This document shows positions 5,664-22,726 of a DNA stretch of 30,979 bases, in pieces. Made by a program: the position numbers and the translations under genes. The notes under the pieces were generated by a model that saw only the letters and a list, made by a program, of their open reading frames with translations, made no database searches and had not been told where the DNA came from. Source of the DNA: Salinarchaeum sp. (GTDB lineage Archaea; Halobacteriota; Halobacteria; Halobacteriales; Salinarchaeaceae); NCBI GenBank assembly GCA_041639835.1, contig JBEQBL010000001.1:1-30979 (forward strand), in the 5' to 3' direction. Position 1 is the stretch's first letter. Every line of letters begins with the position of its first letter.

Positions 5664-5682
5664 GTTCCCCACGTTCGGGAAC
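5664..5682. promoter_or_regulatory. 19-bp palindromic operator A (GTTCCCC-ACGTT-CGGGAAC), 11 nt upstream of TATA-like TTTATGTA (5694-5701)
   Basis: Inverted repeat. A near-identical copy with identical spacing to a TATA box occurs at 9721. Confidence 0.65.
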
Positions 5683-5942
5683 TTATTCATATCTTTATGT
5701 AATTAATTGGTAGTATCATATGCTGTCCCCCGCTTATCGCTGGGGACGAGGTGCATCTCCATGTATGCAGAGAGCCCTATGTATCGACGTATCGACTGTC
5801 TCCACACGACATCATTGTTGATCCCGTTGGTAGCCGGTATGTTACGTATCGGTCTGATAGCACACACGCATGCTGATGCGGCAGTACAATCGCACTGCGA
5901 TCCGTGTGGTCATCAATCCGCTACCACTTCGGTGATTGGTTC

Positions 5943-9720: not shown

Positions 9721-9739
9721 GTTCCCCACAGATGGGAAC
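9721..9739. promoter_or_regulatory. 19-bp palindromic operator B (GTTCCCC-ACAGA-TGGGAAC), 11 nt upstream of TATA-like TTTACATT (9751-9758)
   Basis: Same motif and same spacing as the site at 5664. Confidence 0.65.
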
Positions 9740-9780
9740 GGCATTCAACGTTTACATTAGAAAGCAGTGTATAGTACGCT

Positions 9781-9799: not shown

Positions 9800-9813
9800 A
9801 TGGAGGCGTGAGT

Positions 9814-10188
9814 ATGGAGCTGTTAATATACCTTACCGAACCACCACATTCCAGCAGCAAACCGGTATCGGCACTCAAACTCGGCGAACAGGCACACGAC
9901 CGCGGTCATGAGGTCAAATATTTTCTTATGGATGATGGCGTCTACTGTATCAACGGTGACGTTGCAGTCGGTCGCTCGGGTGTTGATGTGCCCAGTCGAT
10001 TTCGGTCACTCATTGCGGATGGGGTAGAGGTAGCCGCCTGTGAGACGGCAGCTGATGAACGTGGCGTCAGCAGTCGGGAGCGAATGATTTCCGATGTTGA
10101 TATTGAGGGTGTCCAGTCACGAAGCCAATACAAGTGCGCACAGATGATCGATGACTGTGACAAAGTCGTCTCGTTTATTGGTCGATAA
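9814..10188 (+). CDS. dsrE: DsrE/TusD-like sulfurtransferase
   Basis: TEPPH, FLMDDGVY and CETAADERG (conserved active-site Cys position). GGAGG SD upstream. Confidence 0.8.
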   Translation: MELLIYLTEPPHSSSKPVSALKLGEQAHDRGHEVKYFLMDDGVYCINGDVAVGRSGVDVPSRFRSLIADGVEVAACETAADERGVSSRERMISDVDIEGVQSRSQYKCAQMIDDCDKVVSFIGR

Positions 10189-10190
10189 GT

Positions 10191-10544
10191 ATGGCGCAGG
10201 TGACGTATCTCATCTCCGAACCCCCATATGGAACCGAAACGGCTAGTGAAGCGATGCGATCGGCTGTCGGGCAAACTGTTGAGAATGATATTACCGTTAT
10301 TTTCGTCGGCAGTGGCGTTGAGTCAGCGCGTGCGCTCCATGCTGGTCATGAGGCCATTGCTGACACCGCTGGTGTAAAGGAACTTACTGAATACGTCAGT
10401 ACACTCGCTGATCTTGGATCGATTTACTATGAGCAACGCGCCCTGCGACAACGCGCGATTGATCCACCCGGGATTGGAACGCCAGCAACAGTCGATGAAA
10501 TTAATCGGATCGTAACCCAATCAAAGGCGACAATTACCTTCTAA
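10191..10544 (+). CDS. dsrF: DsrF/TusC-like protein
   Basis: SEPPYGTE.A.EAMR N-terminus, between dsrE-like and dsrH-like genes. Confidence 0.7.
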   Translation: MAQVTYLISEPPYGTETASEAMRSAVGQTVENDITVIFVGSGVESARALHAGHEAIADTAGVKELTEYVSTLADLGSIYYEQRALRQRAIDPPGIGTPATVDEINRIVTQSKATITF

Positions 10545-10546
10545 CC

Positions 10547-10783
10547 ATGCTATATACAATTAAAGATCCCCATGTGGACGCTATTGTTCCGGAATTGATT
10601 GATGCCACGGACACCGTCCTGTTGATGAACGACGGCGTCTTAATCGAGCGATCCTTCGCCGGTGATGTCTATGCCATTGAGGAAGACTGCCGTCTCCGTG
10701 GTATCACGCAGCGACCAACGGTCGATTATACTGGAGCCGTTGATCTCATTGCCGATGCTGAGGCCGTAGTCAACTGGCGCTAG
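10547..10783 (+). CDS. dsrH: DsrH/TusB-like protein
   Basis: VLLMNDGV, VYAIEEDCRLRG and VDYTGAVDLI motifs, 78 aa. Confidence 0.75.
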   Translation: MLYTIKDPHVDAIVPELIDATDTVLLMNDGVLIERSFAGDVYAIEEDCRLRGITQRPTVDYTGAVDLIADAEAVVNWR

Positions 10784-10952: not shown

Positions 10953-13900
10953 TTAGTCGTTGTCAGTGTGGGCAGTTCGAGTTTCGGTATCCCATCGCTG
11001 TGGCCGTCCAACTGGTCCATCAACGTACCAGGCATCATCTTCACCTGGATCGGTTGTCGGCTTAATTGGGCGTTTGAGCCATTTCGGCCGTCGAAGTCCG
11101 TTTGGCCCGGGCGCTGGATTGGTCTTTTCAAGCCATTCGCGGTAGATCTCAAAGGACTGGTCGGTGTCAACAAAGACATCGCCATACGCGTCATCTTCCC
11201 GGGCCGGGGTCACCGTTACCTGCTGGTGCCAGCAGTGCATTCCGGAGATTGGATCTGGATGTGGAGCGTGGGTCAGGTTCTGCGGAACGCCGCCGCTTTC
11301 CCACCACACGCGTTCACTATCGGGATCGGTCTTACTTTCAAACGGCGTGATGCCCTCTGTCTGTCGGATGCCCCATTTATGCCCGTCACTCGTCAAGTCA
11401 ACGGAGACTTTTCCGTATGGATCGCCTCCCTCTTCAATTTCTGAGTCAGGGTCCTCATCACGGTCAATTTTCCACTGACCCATATGATGAGACATTGCCA
11501 CAATTCCGGGCTTGATTGATTCGGTGACCCATACTTCATTTACGAAATACCCAATTTCCGTCTCGACACGACAGAGATTGCCTGTGTCTAATCCAAGTCG
11601 CTTGGCGTCTTTTGTGTGAATCCACACCGGATTGTTATGTGAAATCTCCTCAAGATATTTTGCATTTGAGGACCGTGAGTGAATGTGTGTTGGCAACCGG
11701 AACGTCGGCACAAGAACCATCTCACCGTTCTCGTAATCGATATTTTCCGGATGGACGTGCGATTTAATATAGTGTGGCAGTGTATACTGCTCATCCTCCC
11801 AGCCCCACTCGGCCATGGTTTTGGAGTAAAACTGCTGTTTACCTGTTGGGGTTGGGAATCCACGTTTTGGTTCGCCGTCAACCATAACCCCAAGTACATC
11901 TGAGCCATCGGACTCGGAGTGCAACCGATTCTGCTGTGTTGTTCCCCCATCCTGTAATGCTGTGTCAACAGTCGGATCACCTCGAGTTGTGACTGAACGA
12001 TCTGTCCGCCGACGGATGGTCCCATACTCGTCGACAACGACATCCTCATCATCCAGAATTGATGGATCAAGCGACTCCTCATGGAGCGTGTAATCGTTCT
12101 TGGAGGCTTCGAAAGCCCCGTATCGTTTCATATACTCAAGTGGCTCCATGCCGGCATCAGCAGCGACCGCCTGGAGTTGCTCATCGTGCTCAAAGATGTA
12201 CCGGTAGTACTCATCAACTGACATTCGTCGTGGCGGTTCATCATCTTCCTGATATGGACTCTCGAAGTGCTCCCGAATGCCAAGACTACCATCCTCATCA
12301 AGCCGCCACGATAACTCAAGCCAGAATTCGTCCTCTTCCCAGACCTCGCCAGGATTAACCTCATACGTGTGATCGATATCCTCGCCTTCGCGTTCAGCAT
12401 ATCGACGATGGACCGGCTGTCGGAAGGTCACCCAGGTCCCAGCATGCGTTTCTGAACTTTGAAGATCGTGTCGTTCGGGACTATGGCCCATCGGCAGGAC
12501 ATAATCAGCGAAGTATGCTGTTTCGTTCCACGTCGGCGTCAACGCCACATGCAAGCCGACTTTGTCGGGGTCTTGGAGCACCTCAATCCACGAGAATCCA
12601 TCAGGGTATGTGTATACTGGATTAAACACACGCGTGAAATACACCGAAAGTTTTCCACGTCCTTCTTTGAGGAAATACGGCAGCAGCTGGCTCATCTCAT
12701 AGTGTGCAAACGGATATTCATCAGGCAGTTGCAGTTGATCCCAGAGTTTCTGTTGTGGCGGTTCACGCGGGACCTCGGGGTCGTACTTATGCCAGCTGTT
12801 GGGGGCAGTTCCCCCCTTTGTGCCCACGCTACCGGTAAGAACGGACAGGAAGTGTAACGTTCGAGAGACCTGCCAGCCGCCTTCATTCCCGGACGCAGCT
12901 GACCGCCAGATATGACTGGCGTATCTGGGTGCCGCATGGCCGATCTTTTTACCAACCTTCCGAATCGTTGACGCCTCGACACCACTTTCGGCGGCGGCAT
13001 ACTCCGGGGTAAACGTGCTGTAAATATCTTCCTGCAGGATATCGATATATGCCTCAAGATCGTGGCCAATATCAGGATATTCCTCGTCAAGGAACTGCTC
13101 CCAGTTTGTCCACTGGCGGATAAACTCAGCGTCATACAGCCCTTCATCAAGTAGCACCTTTGCCATGGCTAACAGCACAGCCGCCTCACTGCCAGGTTGG
13201 GTTGGCATCCAGTAATCAGCGACAGCAGCCGTATTCGAGAGTCGGGGATCCATTACTGCTAGTTCACCTCCCTCGTCCATGCTATCTAAGATCCGCTGGG
13301 CGTGTGGATTGAAGTAATGGCCCGACTCAAGTTGCGCTGACAACAGCAAAATAAAATCGGCATTGCTATAATCAGCACTTGGGCGATCATACTTATGCCA
13401 AAGCGCATAGCCAGCACGGGCCCCGGAACTACAAATATTGGTGTGTGAATTATGTCCATCAATGCCCCATCCATTGATTGTTCGGTCCATTGACCCATCA
13501 TAACCGGGACGACCAACATGATACGTGATCTCATTCTCACGTCCATCCTGAATTGTCTCGCGCATCTCTCCGGCGATTGCGTTTAATGCCTCATCCCAGG
13601 ACACACGTGTCCACTCACCACTCCCACGGGGTCCATCACGTTTGAGTGGGTATTTGATCCGCTTGGGGTCGTTGATTTGATTGATTGTAGCGACCCCTTT
13701 CGCACAGTTGCGTCCTCGACTTCCGGGGTGCTCGGGATTGCCCTCCAGTTTTTGAATCTCACCACTATCCTTGTCAATATATGCTAGTAATCCACAGCCA
13801 GCCTCACAGTTGAAACAGGCTGTAGGCACAACCGAGTATTCCGTCGGATCACCCGTCGCATCGTACTCAACCCAATGGTCCCACGCTGTTGGATCCGGAT

Positions 13901-14036
13901 ATGCATCCAGCGCACTCGCTGTGGTGTCGCCGTCGGTTCGACGCTGTTGGGTCGCTGTTTGGTCGGTGCGATTCGAGAGGATACCAAGACGTTCGGCAAG
14001 CCGTTCGATCCGGCTTGGTTCAAATTTGTTTCCCAT
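10953..14036 (-). CDS. Molybdopterin (DMSO-reductase family) oxidoreductase catalytic subunit, Psr/Phs/Sre/Soe-like, no Tat signal
   Basis: N-terminal 4Fe-4S motif CFNCEAGC...CAKG, SWDEAL, candidate Mo-ligand Cys in SHTNICSS, DPRLSNTA, and a C-terminal dinucleotide-binding domain (VWIHTKDAKRLGL). Confidence 0.9.
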   Translation of the reverse strand: MGNKFEPSRIERLAERLGILSNRTDQTATQQRRTDGDTTASALDAYPDPTAWDHWVEYDATGDPTEYSVVPTACFNCEAGCGLLAYIDKDSGEIQKLEGNPEHPGSRGRNCAKGVATINQINDPKRIKYPLKRDGPRGSGEWTRVSWDEALNAIAGEMRETIQDGRENEITYHVGRPGYDGSMDRTINGWGIDGHNSHTNICSSGARAGYALWHKYDRPSADYSNADFILLLSAQLESGHYFNPHAQRILDSMDEGGELAVMDPRLSNTAAVADYWMPTQPGSEAAVLLAMAKVLLDEGLYDAEFIRQWTNWEQFLDEEYPDIGHDLEAYIDILQEDIYSTFTPEYAAAESGVEASTIRKVGKKIGHAAPRYASHIWRSAASGNEGGWQVSRTLHFLSVLTGSVGTKGGTAPNSWHKYDPEVPREPPQQKLWDQLQLPDEYPFAHYEMSQLLPYFLKEGRGKLSVYFTRVFNPVYTYPDGFSWIEVLQDPDKVGLHVALTPTWNETAYFADYVLPMGHSPERHDLQSSETHAGTWVTFRQPVHRRYAEREGEDIDHTYEVNPGEVWEEDEFWLELSWRLDEDGSLGIREHFESPYQEDDEPPRRMSVDEYYRYIFEHDEQLQAVAADAGMEPLEYMKRYGAFEASKNDYTLHEESLDPSILDDEDVVVDEYGTIRRRTDRSVTTRGDPTVDTALQDGGTTQQNRLHSESDGSDVLGVMVDGEPKRGFPTPTGKQQFYSKTMAEWGWEDEQYTLPHYIKSHVHPENIDYENGEMVLVPTFRLPTHIHSRSSNAKYLEEISHNNPVWIHTKDAKRLGLDTGNLCRVETEIGYFVNEVWVTESIKPGIVAMSHHMGQWKIDRDEDPDSEIEEGGDPYGKVSVDLTSDGHKWGIRQTEGITPFESKTDPDSERVWWESGGVPQNLTHAPHPDPISGMHCWHQQVTVTPAREDDAYGDVFVDTDQSFEIYREWLEKTNPAPGPNGLRRPKWLKRPIKPTTDPGEDDAWYVDGPVGRPQRWDTETRTAHTDND

Positions 14037-14038
14037 AG

Positions 14039-15796
14039 TTAGGCCATGGAGATGGTTTGGGGGGCAATGATCAGACTATACTCGTAGGCGAATAGACCGA
14101 GTAACGCAAACACGCCGGCAGCAGCCACGGCGATCGCTGCACCGGTTCCGACCAGCATGACAATCGGCAAGACCATGCCGACAAGGACACCACCGCCCCA
14201 GAAGGCGGTTCGAAATCGACCACGAAGGATTCGCTGTGCAGCCTCCTCAGCATCCTCGGTCTGATGTGCTCCGGTCAACTCGGGCACGGCAAAGGCAGCA
14301 TGGCCAACTACCGCCCCAGCAAGCACAATCCGTGCTGGACCGGTGACTTCGGTAACGCCAAGACTGCCTGCAATGGCCAGCAGCGTCGCTCCGGCGAGTA
14401 CCGCTTGGACAAACAGATGGGCGGCCATCCCTGGGCTTTGCCAGAGATCACGGCCCTTGGCCTGTCCAAGCAGAAAGGCGGTATAGACGGCAGTTGCGGT
14501 TCCGAGACTGGCGCCACCGCCGAGGACTACCGGATGCGTGAGCGACTCAACGCCAAGTAGCCAGCCCAAGACAATTGCTCCTAAGGCGGCGCCGTAGGCA
14601 GAAATGACATATGCGCCTTTCGCGAGCCACGAACTCCAGTTTGGTCGGGTCATCACCCAGTGGAATCGAGTTGGCTTGGTGAGCTTCCCAATGAGCAAAC
14701 CACCGGTAATCCCCAAAAAGCCCAGCCCAACCAACGCACTGGCTCCAAGAAGCGTCTGATTGGGGGCAATACCAAGTGCTGACTCAGGAGCCACTAAGCC
14801 AATAAGCATCAACAACGCCGGGACAATCAACGCACCGGTCGCGATTGACTTTGTCCAGGTATACGTGTATACCTCCCAGCCCCAGCTTCTGGCATGATCC
14901 TGTCCAATATCGTAGACTCGCTCGGCCTCTGTGTGTAATAACTCATAGGCCCGCTTTGTAGCTGACTGTGTTGTTGATGTCGTCTCCTGCTCCGGGACCC
15001 CAGCTGTTGTGGCCCCGCCGGATCGCTGGTACCCACCATCTGAGCGGACTGGGTCGCTTGCTGCTGTTTCGCCGGTATCCGGAGTAACCGTTCCAAGATC
15101 CACATCGGAGTCAGCAAGTGACTCCGCAGCAGCATCCAAGTCAAAGTCGTCGACTGCTGGCCCATGTGTTTCGACCCGTGAGGGGGCGTCACTCCACAAA
15201 TAATGGTCCTGTCGTGCCGTTGATCCCGGAATTAGACTGGCTTCATCACCGTTGATGTATGAGAGACTAGGGTCAGTGCCCTTCTCCGGTTTTCGAACCT
15301 GTAGTTCATGCTCGCTCATGACCGTCGAAATTGTTGACTCCGGATCATCCATATCACCGGCGATGATCGCATCCTCCGGACACGCATTGACACATGCCGG
15401 TTGACGCCCCGAGTCGACACGGTGAGCGCAGTAATTGCACTTCGCTGCCGTCTCGGTCTCCGGATCGATATGGATGGAGTCGTACGGACAGGCCTGCATG
15501 CAGGATTTACATCCAATGCAGCGGTCCGGATCAAAGTCGACAATGCCATCCTCACGTTCAAACAGCGCGTTGACCGGGCAGATCTCGGTACACGGTGAAT
15601 CATTACAGTGATTACACCGGATGACCGAAAATTTCCGACTTGTGTGTGGGTAGTCTCCCTTTTCGATATACTTGACCCATGTCTTGTTCGTGCCCAGTGC
15701 ATCGTCATGCTCGGCTTTACAGGCGACGGTGCAGGAGTGACAGCCGATACACCTGCGGTTATCGATGACAAACCCGTAGTTTGTGATGCTCCACAC
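14039..15796 (-). CDS. Fused 4x[4Fe-4S] electron-transfer subunit plus NrfD/PsrC membrane anchor
   Basis: Four ferredoxin motifs (CIGCHSC, CNHCNDSPC, CIGCKSC, CNYC), a long acidic linker, then a hydrophobic NrfD domain starting WGWEVYTYTWTKSIATG. The start codon is ambiguous (see findings). Confidence 0.88.
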   Translation of the reverse strand: MWSITNYGFVIDNRRCIGCHSCTVACKAEHDDALGTNKTWVKYIEKGDYPHTSRKFSVIRCNHCNDSPCTEICPVNALFEREDGIVDFDPDRCIGCKSCMQACPYDSIHIDPETETAAKCNYCAHRVDSGRQPACVNACPEDAIIAGDMDDPESTISTVMSEHELQVRKPEKGTDPSLSYINGDEASLIPGSTARQDHYLWSDAPSRVETHGPAVDDFDLDAAAESLADSDVDLGTVTPDTGETAASDPVRSDGGYQRSGGATTAGVPEQETTSTTQSATKRAYELLHTEAERVYDIGQDHARSWGWEVYTYTWTKSIATGALIVPALLMLIGLVAPESALGIAPNQTLLGASALVGLGFLGITGGLLIGKLTKPTRFHWVMTRPNWSSWLAKGAYVISAYGAALGAIVLGWLLGVESLTHPVVLGGGASLGTATAVYTAFLLGQAKGRDLWQSPGMAAHLFVQAVLAGATLLAIAGSLGVTEVTGPARIVLAGAVVGHAAFAVPELTGAHQTEDAEEAAQRILRGRFRTAFWGGGVLVGMVLPIVMLVGTGAAIAVAAAGVFALLGLFAYEYSLIIAPQTISMA

Positions 15797-16013
15797 CTCC
15801 GTTTGGGGGTATGGACCAAATATTTCTATACTATCACTTAATGGTTAGGTGGGCGGAAAGAGCGACCTCAAGTTTCACCCTGTCCACAAGTCAGGTAACA
15901 ACAGGACGCTGGTGCTCGCCGGTTATCGTCGTTCTTTACAACACTAATGCTGTAAGCAACAACAACCGACACGGCGAGTAACTTTAGCCGCTTGGGATGT
16001 GGTAATAGTGTGT

Positions 16014-16478
16014 ATGGCTCATTCACCAGACCTGTGCCCGGAGGCCAGACACCTCTTTGACGGCTCCCCACAGGTAGTCCGGGTCGCACTGGCGATTGAA
16101 ACAACGATACACGATGTTTCCCCAACCGGTGATGAGGAACTTGCATTAGCACTTGGTCGTGTCCGAGTCGATGGGGCCCCACCGCCATCGGAGGTGCCAA
16201 CATTTGTGTCCGTAACTGATAGGACAATCACAACCGATAATCCACCGTACCTTCGAGGAGAATGGACTGTTGATCCTGGCGAGACACTGCAGGTGACGGG
16301 ACAGCTGGATTCCGAACTGGAGTTGTTAATCGACCCTCCCGTCACAGTCTCGTTTAGTGGCGCTCCATCGTCAGTTATCGAAACGATTGAACGCACACTT
16401 GCAGACATCTACCGCACTCGCGGACGATATCTTGAGCAGATCGATGCCGATGTTGCCACTCCACGCGTGGACGACTAA
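16014..16478 (+). CDS. Hypothetical protein (154 aa)
   Basis: Acidic ORF filling the gap between the Mo-enzyme and shdr operons; family not recognised. Confidence 0.6.
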   Translation: MAHSPDLCPEARHLFDGSPQVVRVALAIETTIHDVSPTGDEELALALGRVRVDGAPPPSEVPTFVSVTDRTITTDNPPYLRGEWTVDPGETLQVTGQLDSELELLIDPPVTVSFSGAPSSVIETIERTLADIYRTRGRYLEQIDADVATPRVDD

Positions 16479-16765
16479 TTGGCCCGTATTTCACTCAGGT
16501 GATACAGGAGCTGATCAAACGCAATCATGGTCAGTTCCTCTTCGTATGACTCAACAAGCCGGGCTGCATCTGCCTGTGGCCGTGTAATGTGTTCGCTAAA
16601 CTGCTCTTCTGCACACTCCGGGCAATTCAGTGTAAACTGTACCGCGTTGCCGGTGTCCGTGTCTATAATTGATAGTGTTAGTTCGGACCGATGGTCCTCG
16701 AACAGATGCTCATGCATCGCTTGCCGGGGCTTTTCCACTGGACAGTATGGGCACGACAGCGTCAT
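16475..16765 (-). CDS. Small zinc-finger-like protein (CPYC...HxxxxH...CPEC), last gene of the shdr operon
   Basis: Two CPxC motifs, His pair, C-terminal IAFDQLLYHL. 2-nt gap to the previous gene. Confidence 0.75.
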   Translation of the reverse strand: MTLSCPYCPVEKPRQAMHEHLFEDHRSELTLSIIDTDTGNAVQFTLNCPECAEEQFSEHITRPQADAARLVESYEEELTMIAFDQLLYHLSEIRAN

Positions 16766-16767
16766 GG

Positions 16768-17235
16768 TTAGAGCTTGAACTGATACTCAACCTCGTGTTT
16801 GTGTTCCGTGGCAAGTTCTTCAACTCCTGCCTGAAGTTCCTGGATGGCAAGTTGATGAGCACTGAGCCGTTCCCGAACTGTTTCAATATCGTCCTGTTGT
16901 TCTTGTGTGATTCGCTGAACTGTCGTCTGCACTCGTTCAAGCCTCTCCTCAAGTCGTTCGAACAACGTCGCAAGTGGCAGGGTTTCCCCATCAATAGTGA
17001 CCACCGGCTGCTCATCTTCGACCGTTACCGTTGGTCCCGTTGTTCCAGCCAAGTCGCCGATGGTCAGATCATGAACCGTCTCCGCGATGGCCATCTCGTA
17101 TGCATCCCCGATACAGTCCTGATGCTCCTGATCGTCGACAGCATCAATATGATCGCTGACAGCAGCAACTGTCGTAAACAGTCGGCCATCAGTGTCGGCA
17201 AACCGGCCACACAGTGGGCACGTATATACCTGCAT
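16768..17235 (-). CDS. CPxCG zinc-finger plus coiled-coil protein
   Basis: CPLCG...HI...D..H N-terminus and heptad-rich acidic C-terminus. 6 nt downstream of shdrB3. Confidence 0.7.
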   Translation of the reverse strand: MQVYTCPLCGRFADTDGRLFTTVAAVSDHIDAVDDQEHQDCIGDAYEMAIAETVHDLTIGDLAGTTGPTVTVEDEQPVVTIDGETLPLATLFERLEERLERVQTTVQRITQEQQDDIETVRERLSAHQLAIQELQAGVEELATEHKHEVEYQFKL

Positions 17236-17241
17236 CGTTGA

Positions 17242-18567
17242 TTAGTGTGGATCGGCCATTGCTTCGGCCACCAGTTCAATGATATCACGAACGTCCATAT
17301 CAGCATCCACAGTTTTCATGGCATCCTCAAATCGGGAGACCTCATACGGACAACAGACCGCAAGCGTATCTGCTGGTGTTTGTTTGGCTTCCCGGGCACG
17401 GTTGTCTGACATTCGTTCATCCTGATAGTCACCGGCAAAGCCATCAAGCCACATCCCCCCGCCACCGCCACCACAGCAATAACTATCCTGGCGGTTACGC
17501 GGCATTTCAACAAACTCAACGCCTGGAATTGCTGATAAAATTGTACGGGGAGCTTCATATTCGTCGTTGTGGCGACCAAGATAACATGGATCATGGAAGG
17601 TTACGGTGCGATCAAGCGACTGTCCCCATTCAATCTCATCGATTCGGTCGGCCAGTACTTGCGTATAATGTGATACCTCCTCATCCCAGCCATCAAGGAC
17701 CGTCTCGTACTCATGACTCAGGGCATTCAGCGCATGTGGCCCTGAAACCAGCAGTTGATCGTGCTCATACTGCGTGATTGCGGTAGCGTTTTCTTGGGCA
17801 ACCATCTCGAAGAGCCCGGCCTCTCCGGCAAGACGTTGGGAGTCACCATCGGTCTGTTCCTGATGTCCAAGAATGCCGTAGTCGATATCCAAAGCGGTGA
17901 GTACCTGCGCCATTGCTTTGGCAGCATCCTGGCCTCGGTCATGGTATGACCAGAAGTCCCCGACAATCCAGAGATATTCAACGGGGTCCGGGTCTGACTC
18001 ACGAGGAAGGATCGGAACATCGACATCGGCCTGACGCGTCCATTTGGCGCGTTTCTTGCTTGACTCTCCCATCGTATTGCCGTTCTGAAACACGTTTTCA
18101 AACATGTCCTGCAACTCATCGGGAATATCCCCGTCAGCAACCCGCTGTTCGCGCACCTTCGGAATAATATCGGTCATATCAACGCCTTTCGGACAGACCC
18201 GCACGCAGTTGCGACAGGTTGTACACAGCCATGCATCCGGACTATCCTCAAGATCGATGCCCAGTTCTGTCCGCCGGTATACCTTTCGGGGGCCATATGC
18301 CCCGCCGGCCTGATCAACCGGACAGACGCCTACGCATTGTGCACACTGATAGCACCGGCCAAGTGTTTCGCCGCCATCAAGATCCATCACCTCCTCAATT
18401 TTCCCTGGATTAAAACTCTCAATTACCCGTTCGCCGTACATCCGATTCCAGTGGCCGGAGACATCAAGACCCTCAACTTCAACCGTATCCTCTTGAGTAA
18501 CGTCGCCAGTACTACCGTACCGGCCTTCTACTTCGCGTCGTTTCTGTTGATCCTGTGAGTGTGACAT
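17242..18567 (-). CDS. shdrB3: sHdrB3-like HdrC2/HdrB2 fusion (2x[4Fe-4S] plus CCG domains)
   Basis: CYQCAQCVGVCP, CTTCRNCVRVCP, FHDPCYLGRHN, SYCCGGGGG, VCCPY. Position directly after shdrH. Confidence 0.78.
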   Translation of the reverse strand: MSHSQDQQKRREVEGRYGSTGDVTQEDTVEVEGLDVSGHWNRMYGERVIESFNPGKIEEVMDLDGGETLGRCYQCAQCVGVCPVDQAGGAYGPRKVYRRTELGIDLEDSPDAWLCTTCRNCVRVCPKGVDMTDIIPKVREQRVADGDIPDELQDMFENVFQNGNTMGESSKKRAKWTRQADVDVPILPRESDPDPVEYLWIVGDFWSYHDRGQDAAKAMAQVLTALDIDYGILGHQEQTDGDSQRLAGEAGLFEMVAQENATAITQYEHDQLLVSGPHALNALSHEYETVLDGWDEEVSHYTQVLADRIDEIEWGQSLDRTVTFHDPCYLGRHNDEYEAPRTILSAIPGVEFVEMPRNRQDSYCCGGGGGGMWLDGFAGDYQDERMSDNRAREAKQTPADTLAVCCPYEVSRFEDAMKTVDADMDVRDIIELVAEAMADPH

Positions 18568-19439
18568 TAGAATCCCTCCATTGGAAGCTGTTGTGGGTGC
18601 GTATCGGTCGTCTGCGTTGGAACCCCAAGGAGCCGACGCACGTACTCCTCATGATCCGGAATCGCATCCGTAAACTGCTTTGTCAGACGCATCGCTAACA
18701 CGAGATAAACATACGCCGCGTGGACGACCGCCATTGCCACTGTCGTCCCGTGGGGGCCGTCCAGAGCTGTCGTATCAAGGCCAAACTCGTCCTTTCGAGT
18801 AGCAACGCGGTCAACAGCATCACAAACGCTTGTATACATGGCCCCAGGTGTAGCGCCATCAAGATGGACATCATTCATCGTCATAAGGGGAACTACTCCT
18901 GTATACGTATCCGGGTGCCACATCCAGCGGGCCCATAGACTCCATTGTTGTGGGTCGACCTGATAGAGAAATTCAGCGGCCACGCTTCGGATAACCTGTG
19001 TGTCAGCACCTTCGACGCGCTCACAGAAGGTATTAAATCGCGTTTCAACCGATGCTGTCTCATTGAGTAGGTCGGCAGTAGCCTGCGCAAACGACTGGAG
19101 ACCGGTTGTCTGTAGAATCTCATCGACATGACGACGACTCGCAAAAACCTGTGTCAGCACCGTCTCAGCCTGTTCGCGTGTGAGATGAGGAGCCATTGTG
19201 AGTGTGTCCTGCATCGTCGATTGTTTGTCGGCCAGGGCCTCACGAATGGCTACAAGCGTGGCCGTGTCTAAATGGGTTTGCTCTCTGAGTTGTTCGATAA
19301 ATTCCCGGATAGTTTCGATATCAACAACATCCTCACCATCTGAGTGAAAACGCAATCCCTCCTTGCTCAGTGCTGCTGCCTTTTGAGCACTTGGCTGTCC
19401 GGCATCGACAATATCCGGCTCGCTGTTAACTGGATGCAT
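18567..19439 (-). CDS. shdrH: sHdrH ('Hyp') subunit of the sHdr complex
   Basis: Sits between shdrA and the C2/B2 gene. AEFLYQVDP..W.LWARWMW...TYTG segment resembles sHdrH as recalled. TAATG overlaps on both sides. Confidence 0.72.
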   Translation of the reverse strand: MHPVNSEPDIVDAGQPSAQKAAALSKEGLRFHSDGEDVVDIETIREFIEQLREQTHLDTATLVAIREALADKQSTMQDTLTMAPHLTREQAETVLTQVFASRRHVDEILQTTGLQSFAQATADLLNETASVETRFNTFCERVEGADTQVIRSVAAEFLYQVDPQQWSLWARWMWHPDTYTGVVPLMTMNDVHLDGATPGAMYTSVCDAVDRVATRKDEFGLDTTALDGPHGTTVAMAVVHAAYVYLVLAMRLTKQFTDAIPDHEEYVRRLLGVPTQTTDTHPQQLPMEGF

Positions 19440-20518
19440 TATTGTCCTCCGTCGGTTGCGGCTTTAGCCGGAATGGCTCGGACATCCGCAACAGCTTTCG
19501 CGGCTGCTGATCCGGCCATACTCACGGTTGTTTCAAGATCTTGCGGGCCGGCGGCTGCCCCAGCAACATACACTCCATCCCGCTCGGTCTCAACAGTTTC
19601 CAGGGGCATGCCGACGGTCTCAAGATAGCCATGCTCTTCAAGTGGGAGATCAAAGACCTCTGCCATCTGGAGTGTGCCAGTTGATGGCTCCATACCGGTT
19701 GAGAGTACCACAACATCCATGGGAATCTCATACGGACGTCCCATCGTTGTGTCCTCGCCTTTGACAAGGACTTGATCGCCCTGCTTGGTGATTTCGGAGG
19801 CAATACCGCGGACATATCGGACGTTGTGCTCCTCCTGTGCTTCCCAGTATAGTTCGTCCTCCCAGAACCCGTAGGTGCGGATGTCAATATAAAAGACCAT
19901 GATGGTTGCGTCGGGGTGCAGCTCCGCGATTTCTGTTGCCTCCTTTGAGGCAACCCCACAGCAGACCTTTGAACACCACTGATTGCCGATCTGTCGGTCC
20001 CGGGACCCCACGCATTGAATAAATCCGATCGTCTCTGGTGCTTCCCCGGTTGAGGGCCGGACAAACTGCCCATCACTGAGCATGTCCTCGGCATCAGGTA
20101 GTGTGATTACATCCTCAAACTGACTGTAATTGTACATTTGCGTCTCGTTTGTCGGGTCAAAATGGTCAAATCCGGTTGCAATGATCACCGACCCGGCGTC
20201 GACGGTTGTCTGCTCGTTCCCGCCATTTCTGGAGACTGTCAGCGTGAAATCACCAACACTGCCGGCTGCATCAACAACCTCGGCATCAGTGAGCAACTCG
20301 ATATGGTCGTGAGTGCGGAATTTCTCTAAGATCGGCTCCATCAACGCTTCTGTCTCCTTTCGCTCCGGTGTCAATGCAGCATAGTTGGCTTCATACGGTG
20401 TCCCACCGATTTCGGGTCGTTTTTCGATAACGATCGTTTCACTGCCGAGATCGGCGGCGCTGATTGCCGCCTTGAGTCCGGCAGGACCGGCTCCAATGAT
20501 TGCAATTGTGTCGTTCAT
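19439..20518 (-). CDS. shdrA: sHdrA, short FAD/[4Fe-4S] HdrA-like subunit
   Basis: GAGPAG Rossmann motif, IIATGF, QCVGSRD...WCSKVCC, DIRTYG. Only 359 aa, lacking the ferredoxin insert of methanogen HdrA. Confidence 0.9.
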   Translation of the reverse strand: MNDTIAIIGAGPAGLKAAISAADLGSETIVIEKRPEIGGTPYEANYAALTPERKETEALMEPILEKFRTHDHIELLTDAEVVDAAGSVGDFTLTVSRNGGNEQTTVDAGSVIIATGFDHFDPTNETQMYNYSQFEDVITLPDAEDMLSDGQFVRPSTGEAPETIGFIQCVGSRDRQIGNQWCSKVCCGVASKEATEIAELHPDATIMVFYIDIRTYGFWEDELYWEAQEEHNVRYVRGIASEITKQGDQVLVKGEDTTMGRPYEIPMDVVVLSTGMEPSTGTLQMAEVFDLPLEEHGYLETVGMPLETVETERDGVYVAGAAAGPQDLETTVSMAGSAAAKAVADVRAIPAKAATDGGQ

Positions 20519-20569
20519 AGTTTTGTGGATATCCTGATTGGATGGGTGGTTACTGTGCGATACATCGAG

Positions 20570-21733
20570 TTAGACATCATCCCATGTGATGTACTCCTTG
20601 TCACCATTCTCAATGGCATCAACGTCAGCTTCGAATTCAGCCCAGGCTTGTTCGTGATCGATCCCCATTTTCTCAAGCAGGGGTTCATAATCGGTCTTAT
20701 GCCAGTGTAACTGACAGACCTTGTACGGATGAGCCCCCATCGCCAGTGCCGCAAACTGCGCCTCGGACATTACCGGAATTCCCACGTCACGGTCATGAAC
20801 TTCGCCAGTTACCCACTGACTTGAATCAAGCGTCGTGACACAACCGGTATCATGAGTGATTGTCACATCCGGGTCAGCCTCATCTTTCATGCGCTCGATC
20901 TTTCGCTGGGTGGCGAATGACCGCGAGAAGTCACGTTCGACGAGGATATGCCGAAAGCCAAACCCACAGCAGTCATACCACGTTGAGTAATCAGCCACGT
21001 CGACACCGATTTCCTCAAGCAGTGCCGTGACGGTGGCCATCCGTTCGCCCCCATAAATCTCCGGATCATAAATGGCATCATCCTCGATAATTTTATGATA
21101 GTGACAGGCCGGATGGACGGTTGCTCTGATATCCGTCAGATCATATTCCAGATTGGCCGCAATCTCCTCACGAACAGCATGAGTCCATTCACTGTAATGG
21201 ACAATCTCCTCGGGGATGACAAGTTCATGCCCGAGTCGATCAAGGACCTCTCGGGCCTCCTCACGGACGGAGTCATGGCTCACAACCTGCTCGCGCACCT
21301 CCTTGTAGTGGCCAAAACTGGTGCCACAGTGAATCAGTGGATAATATCCGTCCTTTTTTGCTTGCCCGAAGTTCCGAAGGGCAACCCCAGCCTGGGCGGC
21401 TTCATTCGAAGTCGCACTGGCATAGAAGTTCCAGCCAGTACAGGAGGTCTGATCCTTGGGATCATAATAGTCATATCCAAGCTTGCGGTGCAACCAGAAA
21501 ATCGAGGTTGAGTAGCCGGGAATATGCCCACACTGTCCACAGGACTTGTGATGCCATGTACCCTCAAGTGGAATCTTCTTTGTTCGCCCGTCTTTGCGGG
21601 TCACTTCGCGGTACGGCTCTGGCACTTCAAGCATCTCAACTTCACCGGCAGCGTCTAACTCCCGAAGTTTTTCGCGTACATCGTGTTTGTGCTCTCCACG
21701 ATGCGATACCGTTGGTGGTGATGACTCTGACAT
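20570..21733 (-). CDS. shdrB1: sHdrB1, CCG-domain subunit
   Basis: WHHKSCGQCGHIPGY, DQTSCTGW, HCGTSFG, HPACHY, WYDCCGFGFRH, HDTGC. Confidence 0.9.
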   Translation of the reverse strand: MSESSPPTVSHRGEHKHDVREKLRELDAAGEVEMLEVPEPYREVTRKDGRTKKIPLEGTWHHKSCGQCGHIPGYSTSIFWLHRKLGYDYYDPKDQTSCTGWNFYASATSNEAAQAGVALRNFGQAKKDGYYPLIHCGTSFGHYKEVREQVVSHDSVREEAREVLDRLGHELVIPEEIVHYSEWTHAVREEIAANLEYDLTDIRATVHPACHYHKIIEDDAIYDPEIYGGERMATVTALLEEIGVDVADYSTWYDCCGFGFRHILVERDFSRSFATQRKIERMKDEADPDVTITHDTGCVTTLDSSQWVTGEVHDRDVGIPVMSEAQFAALAMGAHPYKVCQLHWHKTDYEPLLEKMGIDHEQAWAEFEADVDAIENGDKEYITWDDV

Positions 21734-21735
21734 AC

Positions 21736-22518
21736 TTAGTCACCTGCCTCAAATTCCGCTAATCGATCGTCGATCATGTCTGCAAGGATCATATGAATGC
21801 CCGGATCAATATCCTCGATTAGCTCCAAGACATCGGTTTCCTCCCAGATGACAAACAATTCTGTGACGGTGCGATCCGAGACATCCCATGCACGACCGGT
21901 GGTGTGTAATGTTTCCGGTGGGATTGCTCGGCGCCATTCCTCCATATTTTCAGCCTCCTTCCGGGCCTCCGGTCCCCAGTCCGGAAACGCATCCGGGGTG
22001 ATCATATCGGGAGATACCTGTGTCCCGGTCGACATGATCTTATAAATCACCCGTTCATACCCCTCAAGGGCATCCTGTGCACTATCAAGGCTTGCGTCAA
22101 CGGCCTTCTCACGCATGATCATAATCAATCCGCCAGGGGAGTTTTGCCGAGGGCAGCGCGTACAGGAATAACATTGCGAGCAGTTCCAGATGTCCTCATT
22201 GAGCTGTTCGAAAAAGAGGTCAACGTCCTCCCGGTAGATCGACTGGGCGATGCGGCGTGGGCTGAAGTCATAAAACCGCGCTGAGGGACAAGCCGATACA
22301 CAGACGCCACACCCATAGCAGGCGAAAATGGCCTCGTCGTGCCGGATATCCTCAGTCACCTCCTCGAATAACGCCTCCTTGTCTTCATGATCCCAGTCGT
22401 CGTAGGCCGTCTCATACATCGAGCCATGGGCCTTCCGCTGCTCCATCGCTTCCGGAGTGCGTGTGACCTCCGTCACTTGTTGTCGGTCCGCTGTCGGTAG
22501 TTCTTGTGCGTCTGACAT
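21736..22518 (-). CDS. shdrC1: sHdrC1, 2x[4Fe-4S] subunit
   Basis: CYGCGVCVSACP and CSQCYSCTRCP, FPDWGP. First gene of the operon, start trimmed to ATG 22518. Confidence 0.88.
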   Translation of the reverse strand: MSDAQELPTADRQQVTEVTRTPEAMEQRKAHGSMYETAYDDWDHEDKEALFEEVTEDIRHDEAIFACYGCGVCVSACPSARFYDFSPRRIAQSIYREDVDLFFEQLNEDIWNCSQCYSCTRCPRQNSPGGLIMIMREKAVDASLDSAQDALEGYERVIYKIMSTGTQVSPDMITPDAFPDWGPEARKEAENMEEWRRAIPPETLHTTGRAWDVSDRTVTELFVIWEETDVLELIEDIDPGIHMILADMIDDRLAEFEAGD

Positions 22519-22726
22519 TGCTACAGTCCGCGGAAATCGGTTTGCAAACGATGCACCAGGCTGTCGTGATTGTTGCCTGTCATATGGTCTATTCAACGAT
22601 GCGTATAAAGCTTCGCCTGGCGGAATACAAGCGTTTCATACTGTTTGGCCGCCTATTTATATTCGGTGTCCGGTTGACCGGTTACCCAAGTTATTTTACT
22701 TGTTACTAACAGAAACGCAACCTACA

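Follow-up and report, generated by a model that had tools for sequence, protein, structure and literature searches.

Toxic sulfite is the end product when sulfur is oxidised in the cytoplasm by sHdr, rDsr or persulfide dioxygenase, and many organisms running such pathways are without SoeABC, the adenosine 5'-phosphosulfate reductase route and SUOX-type enzymes. SoeABC, characterised in Allochromatium vinosum and Aquifex aeolicus, is a cytoplasm-facing complex with a cysteine ligand and an FS0 cluster in its catalytic subunit, a four-cluster subunit and an NrfD-type anchor, encoded by three separate genes in the order A-B-C. Green sulfur bacteria hold another complex, PSRLC3 (polysulfide-reductase-like complex 3), which has been described as encoded by two genes (PMC5473276) and as "inferred to be sulfite oxidase" (PMC9324843). 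Here we analyse a two-gene molybdenum oxidoreductase, in which a fused electron-transfer and anchor gene (BC) precedes the catalytic gene (A), in a stretch of 30,979 nucleotides from a Salinarchaeum sp. metagenome-assembled genome (MAG), referred to as the window, where the pair adjoins a type II sHdr-LbpA system. Based on comparisons to the available families combined with analysis of conserved gene neighbourhoods, we propose that the pair constitutes a PSRLC3-type complex iron-sulfur molybdoenzyme, and that it rather probably acts as a sulfite:menaquinone oxidoreductase. The parts and the orientation are read from the sequence, while we infer the substrate, the direction and the quinone.

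Judged on every sequence feature compared, the pair is a member of the two-gene, cytoplasm-facing PSRLC3-type family. The open reading frames (ORFs) of the window place BC and A exactly where the original prediction had put a fused B-C gene followed by the catalytic gene, both on the minus strand, with the BC stop codon 2 nt ahead of the ATG of A (Table 1). Green sulfur bacteria, recognised by the FMO protein (PF02327) in 98 of the 401 genomes of a phylum sample around one Bacteroidota locus, encode an orthologue of A in 21 of 40 FMO-positive genomes (E <= 1e-230, 55-57% identity over the full length). In these bacteria a continuous fused-BC frame ends ~20 nt ahead of the A orthologue (loci L144-L149), which likewise carries no RR motif, and the A protein of one of them is nested inside the family in a maximum-likelihood (ML) tree, beside Calditrichota and haloarchaeal branches. 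The architecture is thus the same, i.e. two genes encoding a fused FeS-NrfD protein and then a signal-less catalytic subunit, whereas the proteins studied here differ through their haloarchaeal host, their acidic composition, an insertion of ~50 residues and a C-terminal tail in A, and a longer linker in BC. The neighbouring genes differ as well, being dsr genes in green sulfur bacteria and type II sHdr genes in the window.

The family is very widespread, with at least 586 relatives confirmed in a scan of species genomes. Haloarchaeal orthologues share 70-81% identity and bacterial ones, green sulfur bacteria included, 52-63%; bacterial holders belong to Calditrichota, KSB1, Bacteroidota, Acidobacteriota, Chloroflexota, Actinomycetota, Gemmatimonadota, Planctomycetota, Binatia and others. 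Cultured holders include Thermomicrobium roseum (on its megaplasmid), Rhodococcus jostii RHA1 (on pRHL3), Natrinema, Halomarina and Halomicrococcus. Of 87 loci, at least 67 have the fused BC gene immediately before A, and contig ends truncate most of the others; fusion and gene order are the norm in the family and no peculiarity of this archaeon. Within this known family the pair is unremarkable, its host and surroundings being what is unusual. Contrary to the possibility raised in the original prediction, it does not represent a new clade, as PMC9324843, PMC6338057 and PMC5473276 already name the PSRLC3 complex or infer a sulfite oxidase. Among Halobacteria the distribution is patchy (12 of 400 other genomes, 8 of 90 other genera sampled, and none of the three genomes in that sample from the host's own family), often plasmid-borne, and nested among bacterial sequences in trees. 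A second, more divergent haloarchaeal version, present in one small-genome genus (G003, G026; L014, L155), is 53-62% identical across the matched segments, which suggests either that the enzyme entered Halobacteria more than once or that it diverged fast.

Pfam domains above their cut-offs define A as a molybdopterin enzyme of the DMSO reductase/MopB superfamily, with Molybdop_Fe4S4 at residues 68-122, Molybdopterin at 126-527 and Molydop_binding at 778-874. The FS0 cysteines Cys74, Cys77, Cys81 and Cys111 are invariant in a 12-sequence alignment. The SHTNICSS motif, previously singled out as containing a candidate cysteine ligand, corresponds to residues 197-204, and its Cys202 aligns with the Mo-ligand cysteines of ArrA (6cz7) and PsrA (2vpw). 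Conservation of this cysteine across the family reaches at least 90%; it is present in all rows of the multiple alignment but that of one Myxococcota member, and is embedded in the signature DGHNSHTN[IV]CS. The deviating protein (P0124, locus L015), from a Myxococcota MAG, is 40% identical, and its gene is accompanied by fused BC and by persulfide dioxygenase-rhodanese genes; neither the GR motif nor the HTNIC ligand cysteine appears in its row of the alignment, and it may be degenerate or differently ligated.

The N-terminus of A displays neither an RRxFLK motif nor a hydrophobic stretch. Since the frame stays open for only 13 codons further upstream (open frame of 1040 residues), a hidden twin-arginine translocation (Tat) signal is impossible. 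The BC protein is also devoid of a Tat or Sec signal at its N-terminus, and begins with a ferredoxin domain (Fer4_11 at residues 59-148, above cut-off) whose 16 cysteines form four cluster motifs. A linker of ~115 residues follows, with 22 Asp and Glu against 7 Lys and Arg, and 25 Thr and Ser, and leads into an NrfD domain (Pfam, residues 302-581, above cut-off) with 8 hydrophobic helices. The loops at 370-390, 446-460 and 509-536 carry 4, 2 and 4 Lys and Arg, respectively, and the loop at 337-350 none, which puts the positively charged loops and the N-terminal ferredoxin domain on one side of the membrane. From this positive-inside pattern, together with the missing export signals of both proteins, the two redox modules should reside on the cytoplasmic face, as the original prediction had stated for the catalytic subunit. 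The complex would then be inverted relative to PsrABC, and an inverted anchor has likewise been proposed for SoeC (PMC8076601). PsrABC and PhsABC (Thermus 2vpw, Salmonella PhsA) share the three-module design, the cysteine ligand and the NrfD anchor with the pair, yet are Tat-exported and outward-facing, with B and C separate.

Despite the similarity in presumed working, the pair is, from the comparisons made, no member of SoeABC. As SoeA-type references we used Sulfobacillus acidophilus DSM 10332 (L140), Paraburkholderia (L141) and Azospirillum (L142); NCBIfam contains no SoeA model. S. acidophilus was reached via sHdrA, and its best match to A lies at ~130 kb, the same site as its SoeABC (TPY_0113-0115, PMC5114278), where A (962 residues), B (220) and C (333) are separate and in that order. 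Relatives of this SoeA, 49-53% identical, occur on Paraburkholderia, Burkholderia, Azospirillum and Rhizobium replicons in A-B-C order, and on the plasmid of Azospirillum sp. TSH58 (L142, 3866-10721) soeABC is located directly upstream of xsc (sulfoacetaldehyde acetyltransferase), a clear pair of sulfite source and sulfite sink. In a 300-genome phylum sample around L078 only Psr-like paralogues and no SoeA were recovered.

That the pair represents a true SoeABC orthologue with soeB and soeC fused appears scarcely credible. The orientation and cofactor set are the same, and the catalytic subunits are of similar size (~950-1030 residues), but A aligns with the S. acidophilus SoeA-type protein over just 411 N-terminal residues, at 27% identity and 131 bits, whereas Tat-exported Psr-like proteins score 240-370 bits. 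Plasmid matches retrieved with A and with SoeA-type queries do not overlap; those in Pseudohalocynthiibacter and Thioclava proved to be unrelated MopB enzymes. Gene order and subunit layout differ too, the pair having fused BC followed by A. Two quick ML trees both recover the fused family as a separate clade that also contains some Tat-bearing sisters (Shimodaira-Hasegawa-like approximate likelihood ratio test 100, stem ~1.05-1.1). SoeA-type proteins are placed elsewhere on a long branch, the separation of the clades being supported at 98-100 in the same test, in agreement with the earlier view that A is not a close SoeA orthologue. A deep sister relation was not firmly rejected, as constraining the fused lineage and SoeA to one clade lowered the log-likelihood by 21.7 with p 0.051 in an approximately unbiased test (quick tree, 25 rows).

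The Tat-bearing sisters (P0127, P0172, P0147) are 31-42% identical and keep the NSHTNICS signature. On a plasmid of Sulfurovum mangrovi (L023), a separate nrfD precedes the catalytic region and a gene for a TorD-like chaperone follows it. One of these sisters groups with a signal-less fused member, indicating that the orientation switched within the lineage.

Neighbourhoods were counted in 80 species loci, 40 of which have full 9-kb flanks. Sulfite oxidation is deduced from the conserved neighbours in these other genomes and from the fact that no other sulfite oxidiser was found in the host MAG. Most frequent is a fusion of metallo-beta-lactamase and rhodanese domains that belongs to the persulfide dioxygenase type; it is present in 28 of the 80 loci, and in 16 when counting is restricted to the 40 with full flanks. 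Persulfide dioxygenase frees sulfite in the cytoplasm. SulP-STAS permeases stand beside the enzyme in 14 of the 80 loci, followed in frequency by TorD/NarJ-like chaperones, rhodaneses and MoaD/MoaE. Single loci contribute an SQR-like flavoprotein, split YeeE/YedE-type Sulf_transp carriers and a sigma-54 regulator; the RHA1 locus contains DsrE, TusA, thioredoxin and ArsR regulators, and a Natrialbaceae locus five rhodaneses. In T. roseum a regulator annotated as metal-sensitive is encoded directly upstream, which we read as CsoR/CstR-like. The host MAG (1.98 Mb, 294 contigs, 82.6% complete) yielded no SUOX-type enzyme (PF00174), no AprA and no canonical SoeA. Its matches to persulfide dioxygenase-rhodanese are weak, 33% and 30% identical over the metallo-beta-lactamase domain (G000:C15:9507-10004 and G000:C60:4557-4997), which makes persulfide dioxygenase an improbable source of sulfite in this MAG. 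The genomic context across the family supports the part of the original prediction that named sulfite as a possible substrate.

We accordingly envisage a mechanism that resembles the reaction and physiological role proposed for SoeABC; both families adjoin sulfite-producing genes, as exemplified by xsc beside the Azospirillum copy. Sulfite would be oxidised to sulfate on the cytoplasmic face, at the cysteine-ligated molybdenum bis(pyranopterin guanine dinucleotide) site of A. Two electrons would then pass via FS0 and the four clusters of BC to menaquinone, whose binding site would be in the NrfD domain, towards the cytoplasm. With less weight, we suggest that the sulfite may be supplied by the adjacent sHdr-LbpA system, such that the island would carry sulfane sulfur through to sulfate; sHdr oxidises sulfane sulfur to sulfite (PMC11094781).

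Alternatively, the enzyme may act on another cytoplasmic sulfur substrate, in a quinol-linked reduction or interconversion of thiosulfate, tetrathionate, polysulfide or persulfide. This we consider unlikely, even if profile scores point in that direction. The best NCBIfam scores of A are those of DmsA/YnfE (199 bits), PhsA (NF012032, 188 bits against a cut-off of 694) and TtrA (110 against 1750), and those of the B domain are TtrB (190 bits, cut-off 416) and DsrO (166 bits, cut-off 200). The gene order is moreover that of ttrBCA, albeit the Ttr proteins are exported and unfused. All these scores stay below the equivalog cut-offs, TtrA and TtrB included, which speaks against such an assignment. 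The neighbouring rhodaneses and YeeE/YedE-type Sulf_transp carriers deal with thiosulfate or sulfane sulfur, persulfide dioxygenase and rhodanese together give thiosulfate besides sulfite, exported sisters occur in the sulfur bacterium Sulfurovum, and the Aquifex SoeABC complex was reportedly first described as a sulfur reductase. On the other hand, no energetic benefit is apparent for a thiosulfate or polysulfide reductase that faces the cytoplasm and draws on quinol, SulP neighbours are consistent with sulfate as product, and the green sulfur bacterial holders are sulfur oxidisers for which the literature proposes sulfite oxidation.

A substrate outside sulfur metabolism, i.e. arsenite, selenite, another oxyanion or an organic molecule, appears highly unlikely. 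ArrA and PsrA are the nearest solved structures by sequence (E ~1e-35), ArrA being the closest, many loci are without nearby sulfur genes, and phosphate-type anion transporters are encoded near two haloarchaeal copies. However, sulfur genes are the only recurrent functional neighbours across phyla, and neither ars, arr or arx genes nor their regulators recur. The Azoarcus KH32C plasmid match, which adjoins arsenic genes and a sensor/sigma-54 set and looks Arx-like, is 29% identical and falls outside the family in trees.

The adjacency to sHdr is real but local, being observed in this MAG and in one related MAG. Upstream of BC, the genes for sHdrC1, B1 and A, a hypothetical protein and a B3-like fusion occupy 17242-22596 on the minus strand. 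In the related MAG (GCA_041640095.1, L136), where A is 81% and sHdrA 87% identical, the order is the same, with the shdr genes, two small ORFs, an opposite-strand ORF of 154 residues, BC and A. The opposite-strand ORF (L136 7648-8112) clusters with its counterpart in the window (16014-16478), and could encode a regulator or accessory protein of either sHdr or the BC-A unit. sHdrA served as marker for the search of other haloarchaea after the sHdrB3-like protein was discarded, as it matched CCG proteins of 700-780 residues at unrelated haloarchaeal loci. The sHdrA of the window is 58% identical to proteins of Sulfobacillus acidophilus (P0292) and Chloroherpeton thalassium (P0361), both located in shdrC1-B1-A clusters. 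Among the 120 best sHdrA matches, those above 68% identity bear no organism label, and the only archaeal label is that of a Euryarchaeota MAG at 60%.

Several observations weigh against sulfite:menaquinone oxidation fed by sHdr. The function proposed for the family derives from gene neighbourhood, and the characterised analogue SoeABC belongs to a different family. A persulfide dioxygenase is not within reach in 52 of the 80 loci, and since Tat-exported sisters belong to the same lineage, the substrate may vary within it. For the substrate pocket, we set R176, H198, T199, C202 and R207 of A against R165, H189, S190, C193 and K198 of the oxyanion site in ArrA, and abandoned this route to the substrate, as GR and HxxxC are also found in Psr/Phs/Arx-like relatives in the multiple alignment; the conserved GR, HxxxC and R207 are thus uninformative on substrate. 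Co-occurrence with shdr, which the original prediction had named as a check, does not extend to a general pattern: shdr genes lie near the enzyme in just one of the 80 bacterial species loci (L058, Ktedonobacteraceae), and no sHdrA homologue (E <= 1e-15) was found in the 12 other haloarchaeal holders, whose genomes are 94-100% complete. In the window itself, the conserved opposite-strand ORF and a separate TATA-like box intervene and argue against co-transcription with shdr, for which reason the pair is probably outside the sHdr operon. From the position of the box, BC probably has a promoter of its own and a transcript without a leader.

Alternatively, the pair may be a sulfite dehydrogenase for general detoxification, disposing of sulfite from persulfide dioxygenase or from cysteine or sulfonate breakdown as in other haloarchaea, with its place next to sHdr being incidental. 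We regard this as a minor but serious possibility. All 12 other haloarchaeal holders are without sHdrA, the enzyme is patchy in Halobacteria and often plasmid-borne, and the pair has its own TATA-like box, is separated from shdr by the opposite-strand ORF and is not preceded by the promoter palindrome of the pst-like and dsrE genes described below. Conversely, the adjacency of sHdr, BC and A has been retained in a second, diverged MAG, the bacterial locus L058 joins sHdr and the enzyme too, and sHdr requires a sulfite sink, with no other found in the genome.

In light of its apparent own promoter and its occurrence without sHdr elsewhere in haloarchaea, the pair resembles a portable module for removing sulfite more than a fixed subunit of sHdr, and in this lineage it looks like it came to adjoin an acquired sHdr island. 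Returning to sulfite oxidation fed by sHdr, we advance a wider, joint proposition tentatively, as one that may well prove too broad: that the sHdr-LbpA island and the enzyme together take sulfane sulfur or thiosulfate all the way to sulfate within the cytoplasm and deliver every electron to menaquinone, that this is the first such dissimilatory pathway in Halobacteria, and that the lineage is suited to show PSRLC3 to be the missing sulfite dehydrogenase where sHdr or persulfide dioxygenase but no SoeABC is present.

The finding itself adds one member to the family, and its value lies in the pathway possibly completed here and in the pointer to the family, whose genes carry only the annotation 'molybdopterin-dependent oxidoreductase'. 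If the family is a general sulfite:quinone oxidoreductase, surveys of sulfur-cycle genes undercount sulfite oxidation, and a sulfur-to-sulfate pathway not described before in Halobacteria would be completed in this archaeon.

Table 1. Positions of the BC-A pair, its modules and surrounding features in the window, with ATPase genes of other loci in the last row.
Feature	Position	Strand	Details and basis
Fused BC, electron-transfer and anchor subunit	14039-15796	-	585 residues, GTG start; Pfam Fer4_11 and NrfD
BC ferredoxin domain, PsrB/TtrB-like, residues 1-185	15242-15796	-	No signal peptide; Cys positions
BC acidic Thr/Ser-rich linker, residues ~186-300	14897-15241	-	Composition; no Pfam match
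BC NrfD-type membrane domain, residues ~301-585	14042-14896	-	Pfam NrfD 302-581
Catalytic Mo/W-bisPGD subunit A	10953-14036	-	1027 residues; Pfam domains; no Tat signal
FS0 [4Fe-4S] motif of A, Cys74/Cys77/Cys81/Cys111	13704-13817	-	Alignment and Pfam Molybdop_Fe4S4
Codon of Cys202, candidate Mo ligand of A	13431-13433	-	Alignment with ArrA and PsrA
TATA-like AT-rich box, centre ~28 nt upstream of the BC GTG	15818-15830	-	Read from the sequence
ORF of 154 residues between sHdr genes and BC	16014-16478	+	No Pfam match
sHdr core genes and two small ORFs	16475-22596	-	Pfam CCG, Fer4, Pyr_redox_2
DsrE/DsrE/DsrH-like sulfur-transferase trio	9808-10783	+	Two DsrE matches and one DsrH match in Pfam; convergent with A, facing its 3' end
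Mrp/NBP35 ATPase genes in other loci	L001 13027-14235; L020 11799-12968; L024, L025, L152, L153, L156-L158		

Further features of the window and of related loci were recorded. A palindrome, GTTCCCCAC-N5-GGGAAC, is located at 5664-5683 and 9721-9740, upstream of the pst-like transporter and dsrE-like genes, and both copies continue into similar downstream sequence. It was not found before BC or shdrC1. Allowing 3 mismatches gave two matches, not above chance; in shuffles, the short pattern alone does not exceed chance either.

Within A, residues ~660-712 (window ~11900-12060) comprise an acidic insertion of ~50 residues that varies by lineage and at which all alignments to bacterial orthologues break, and haloarchaeal A proteins carry an extra acidic C-terminal tail (window 10953-11050). 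Downstream of A, neither the window nor the related MAG locus L136 contains an Mrp/NBP35 ATPase gene. Directly 3' of A in 7 of 11 haloarchaeal loci, and also in RHA1, such an ATPase (ParA/CbiA-like, ~400 residues) is encoded, which suggests a dedicated Fe-S maturation factor.

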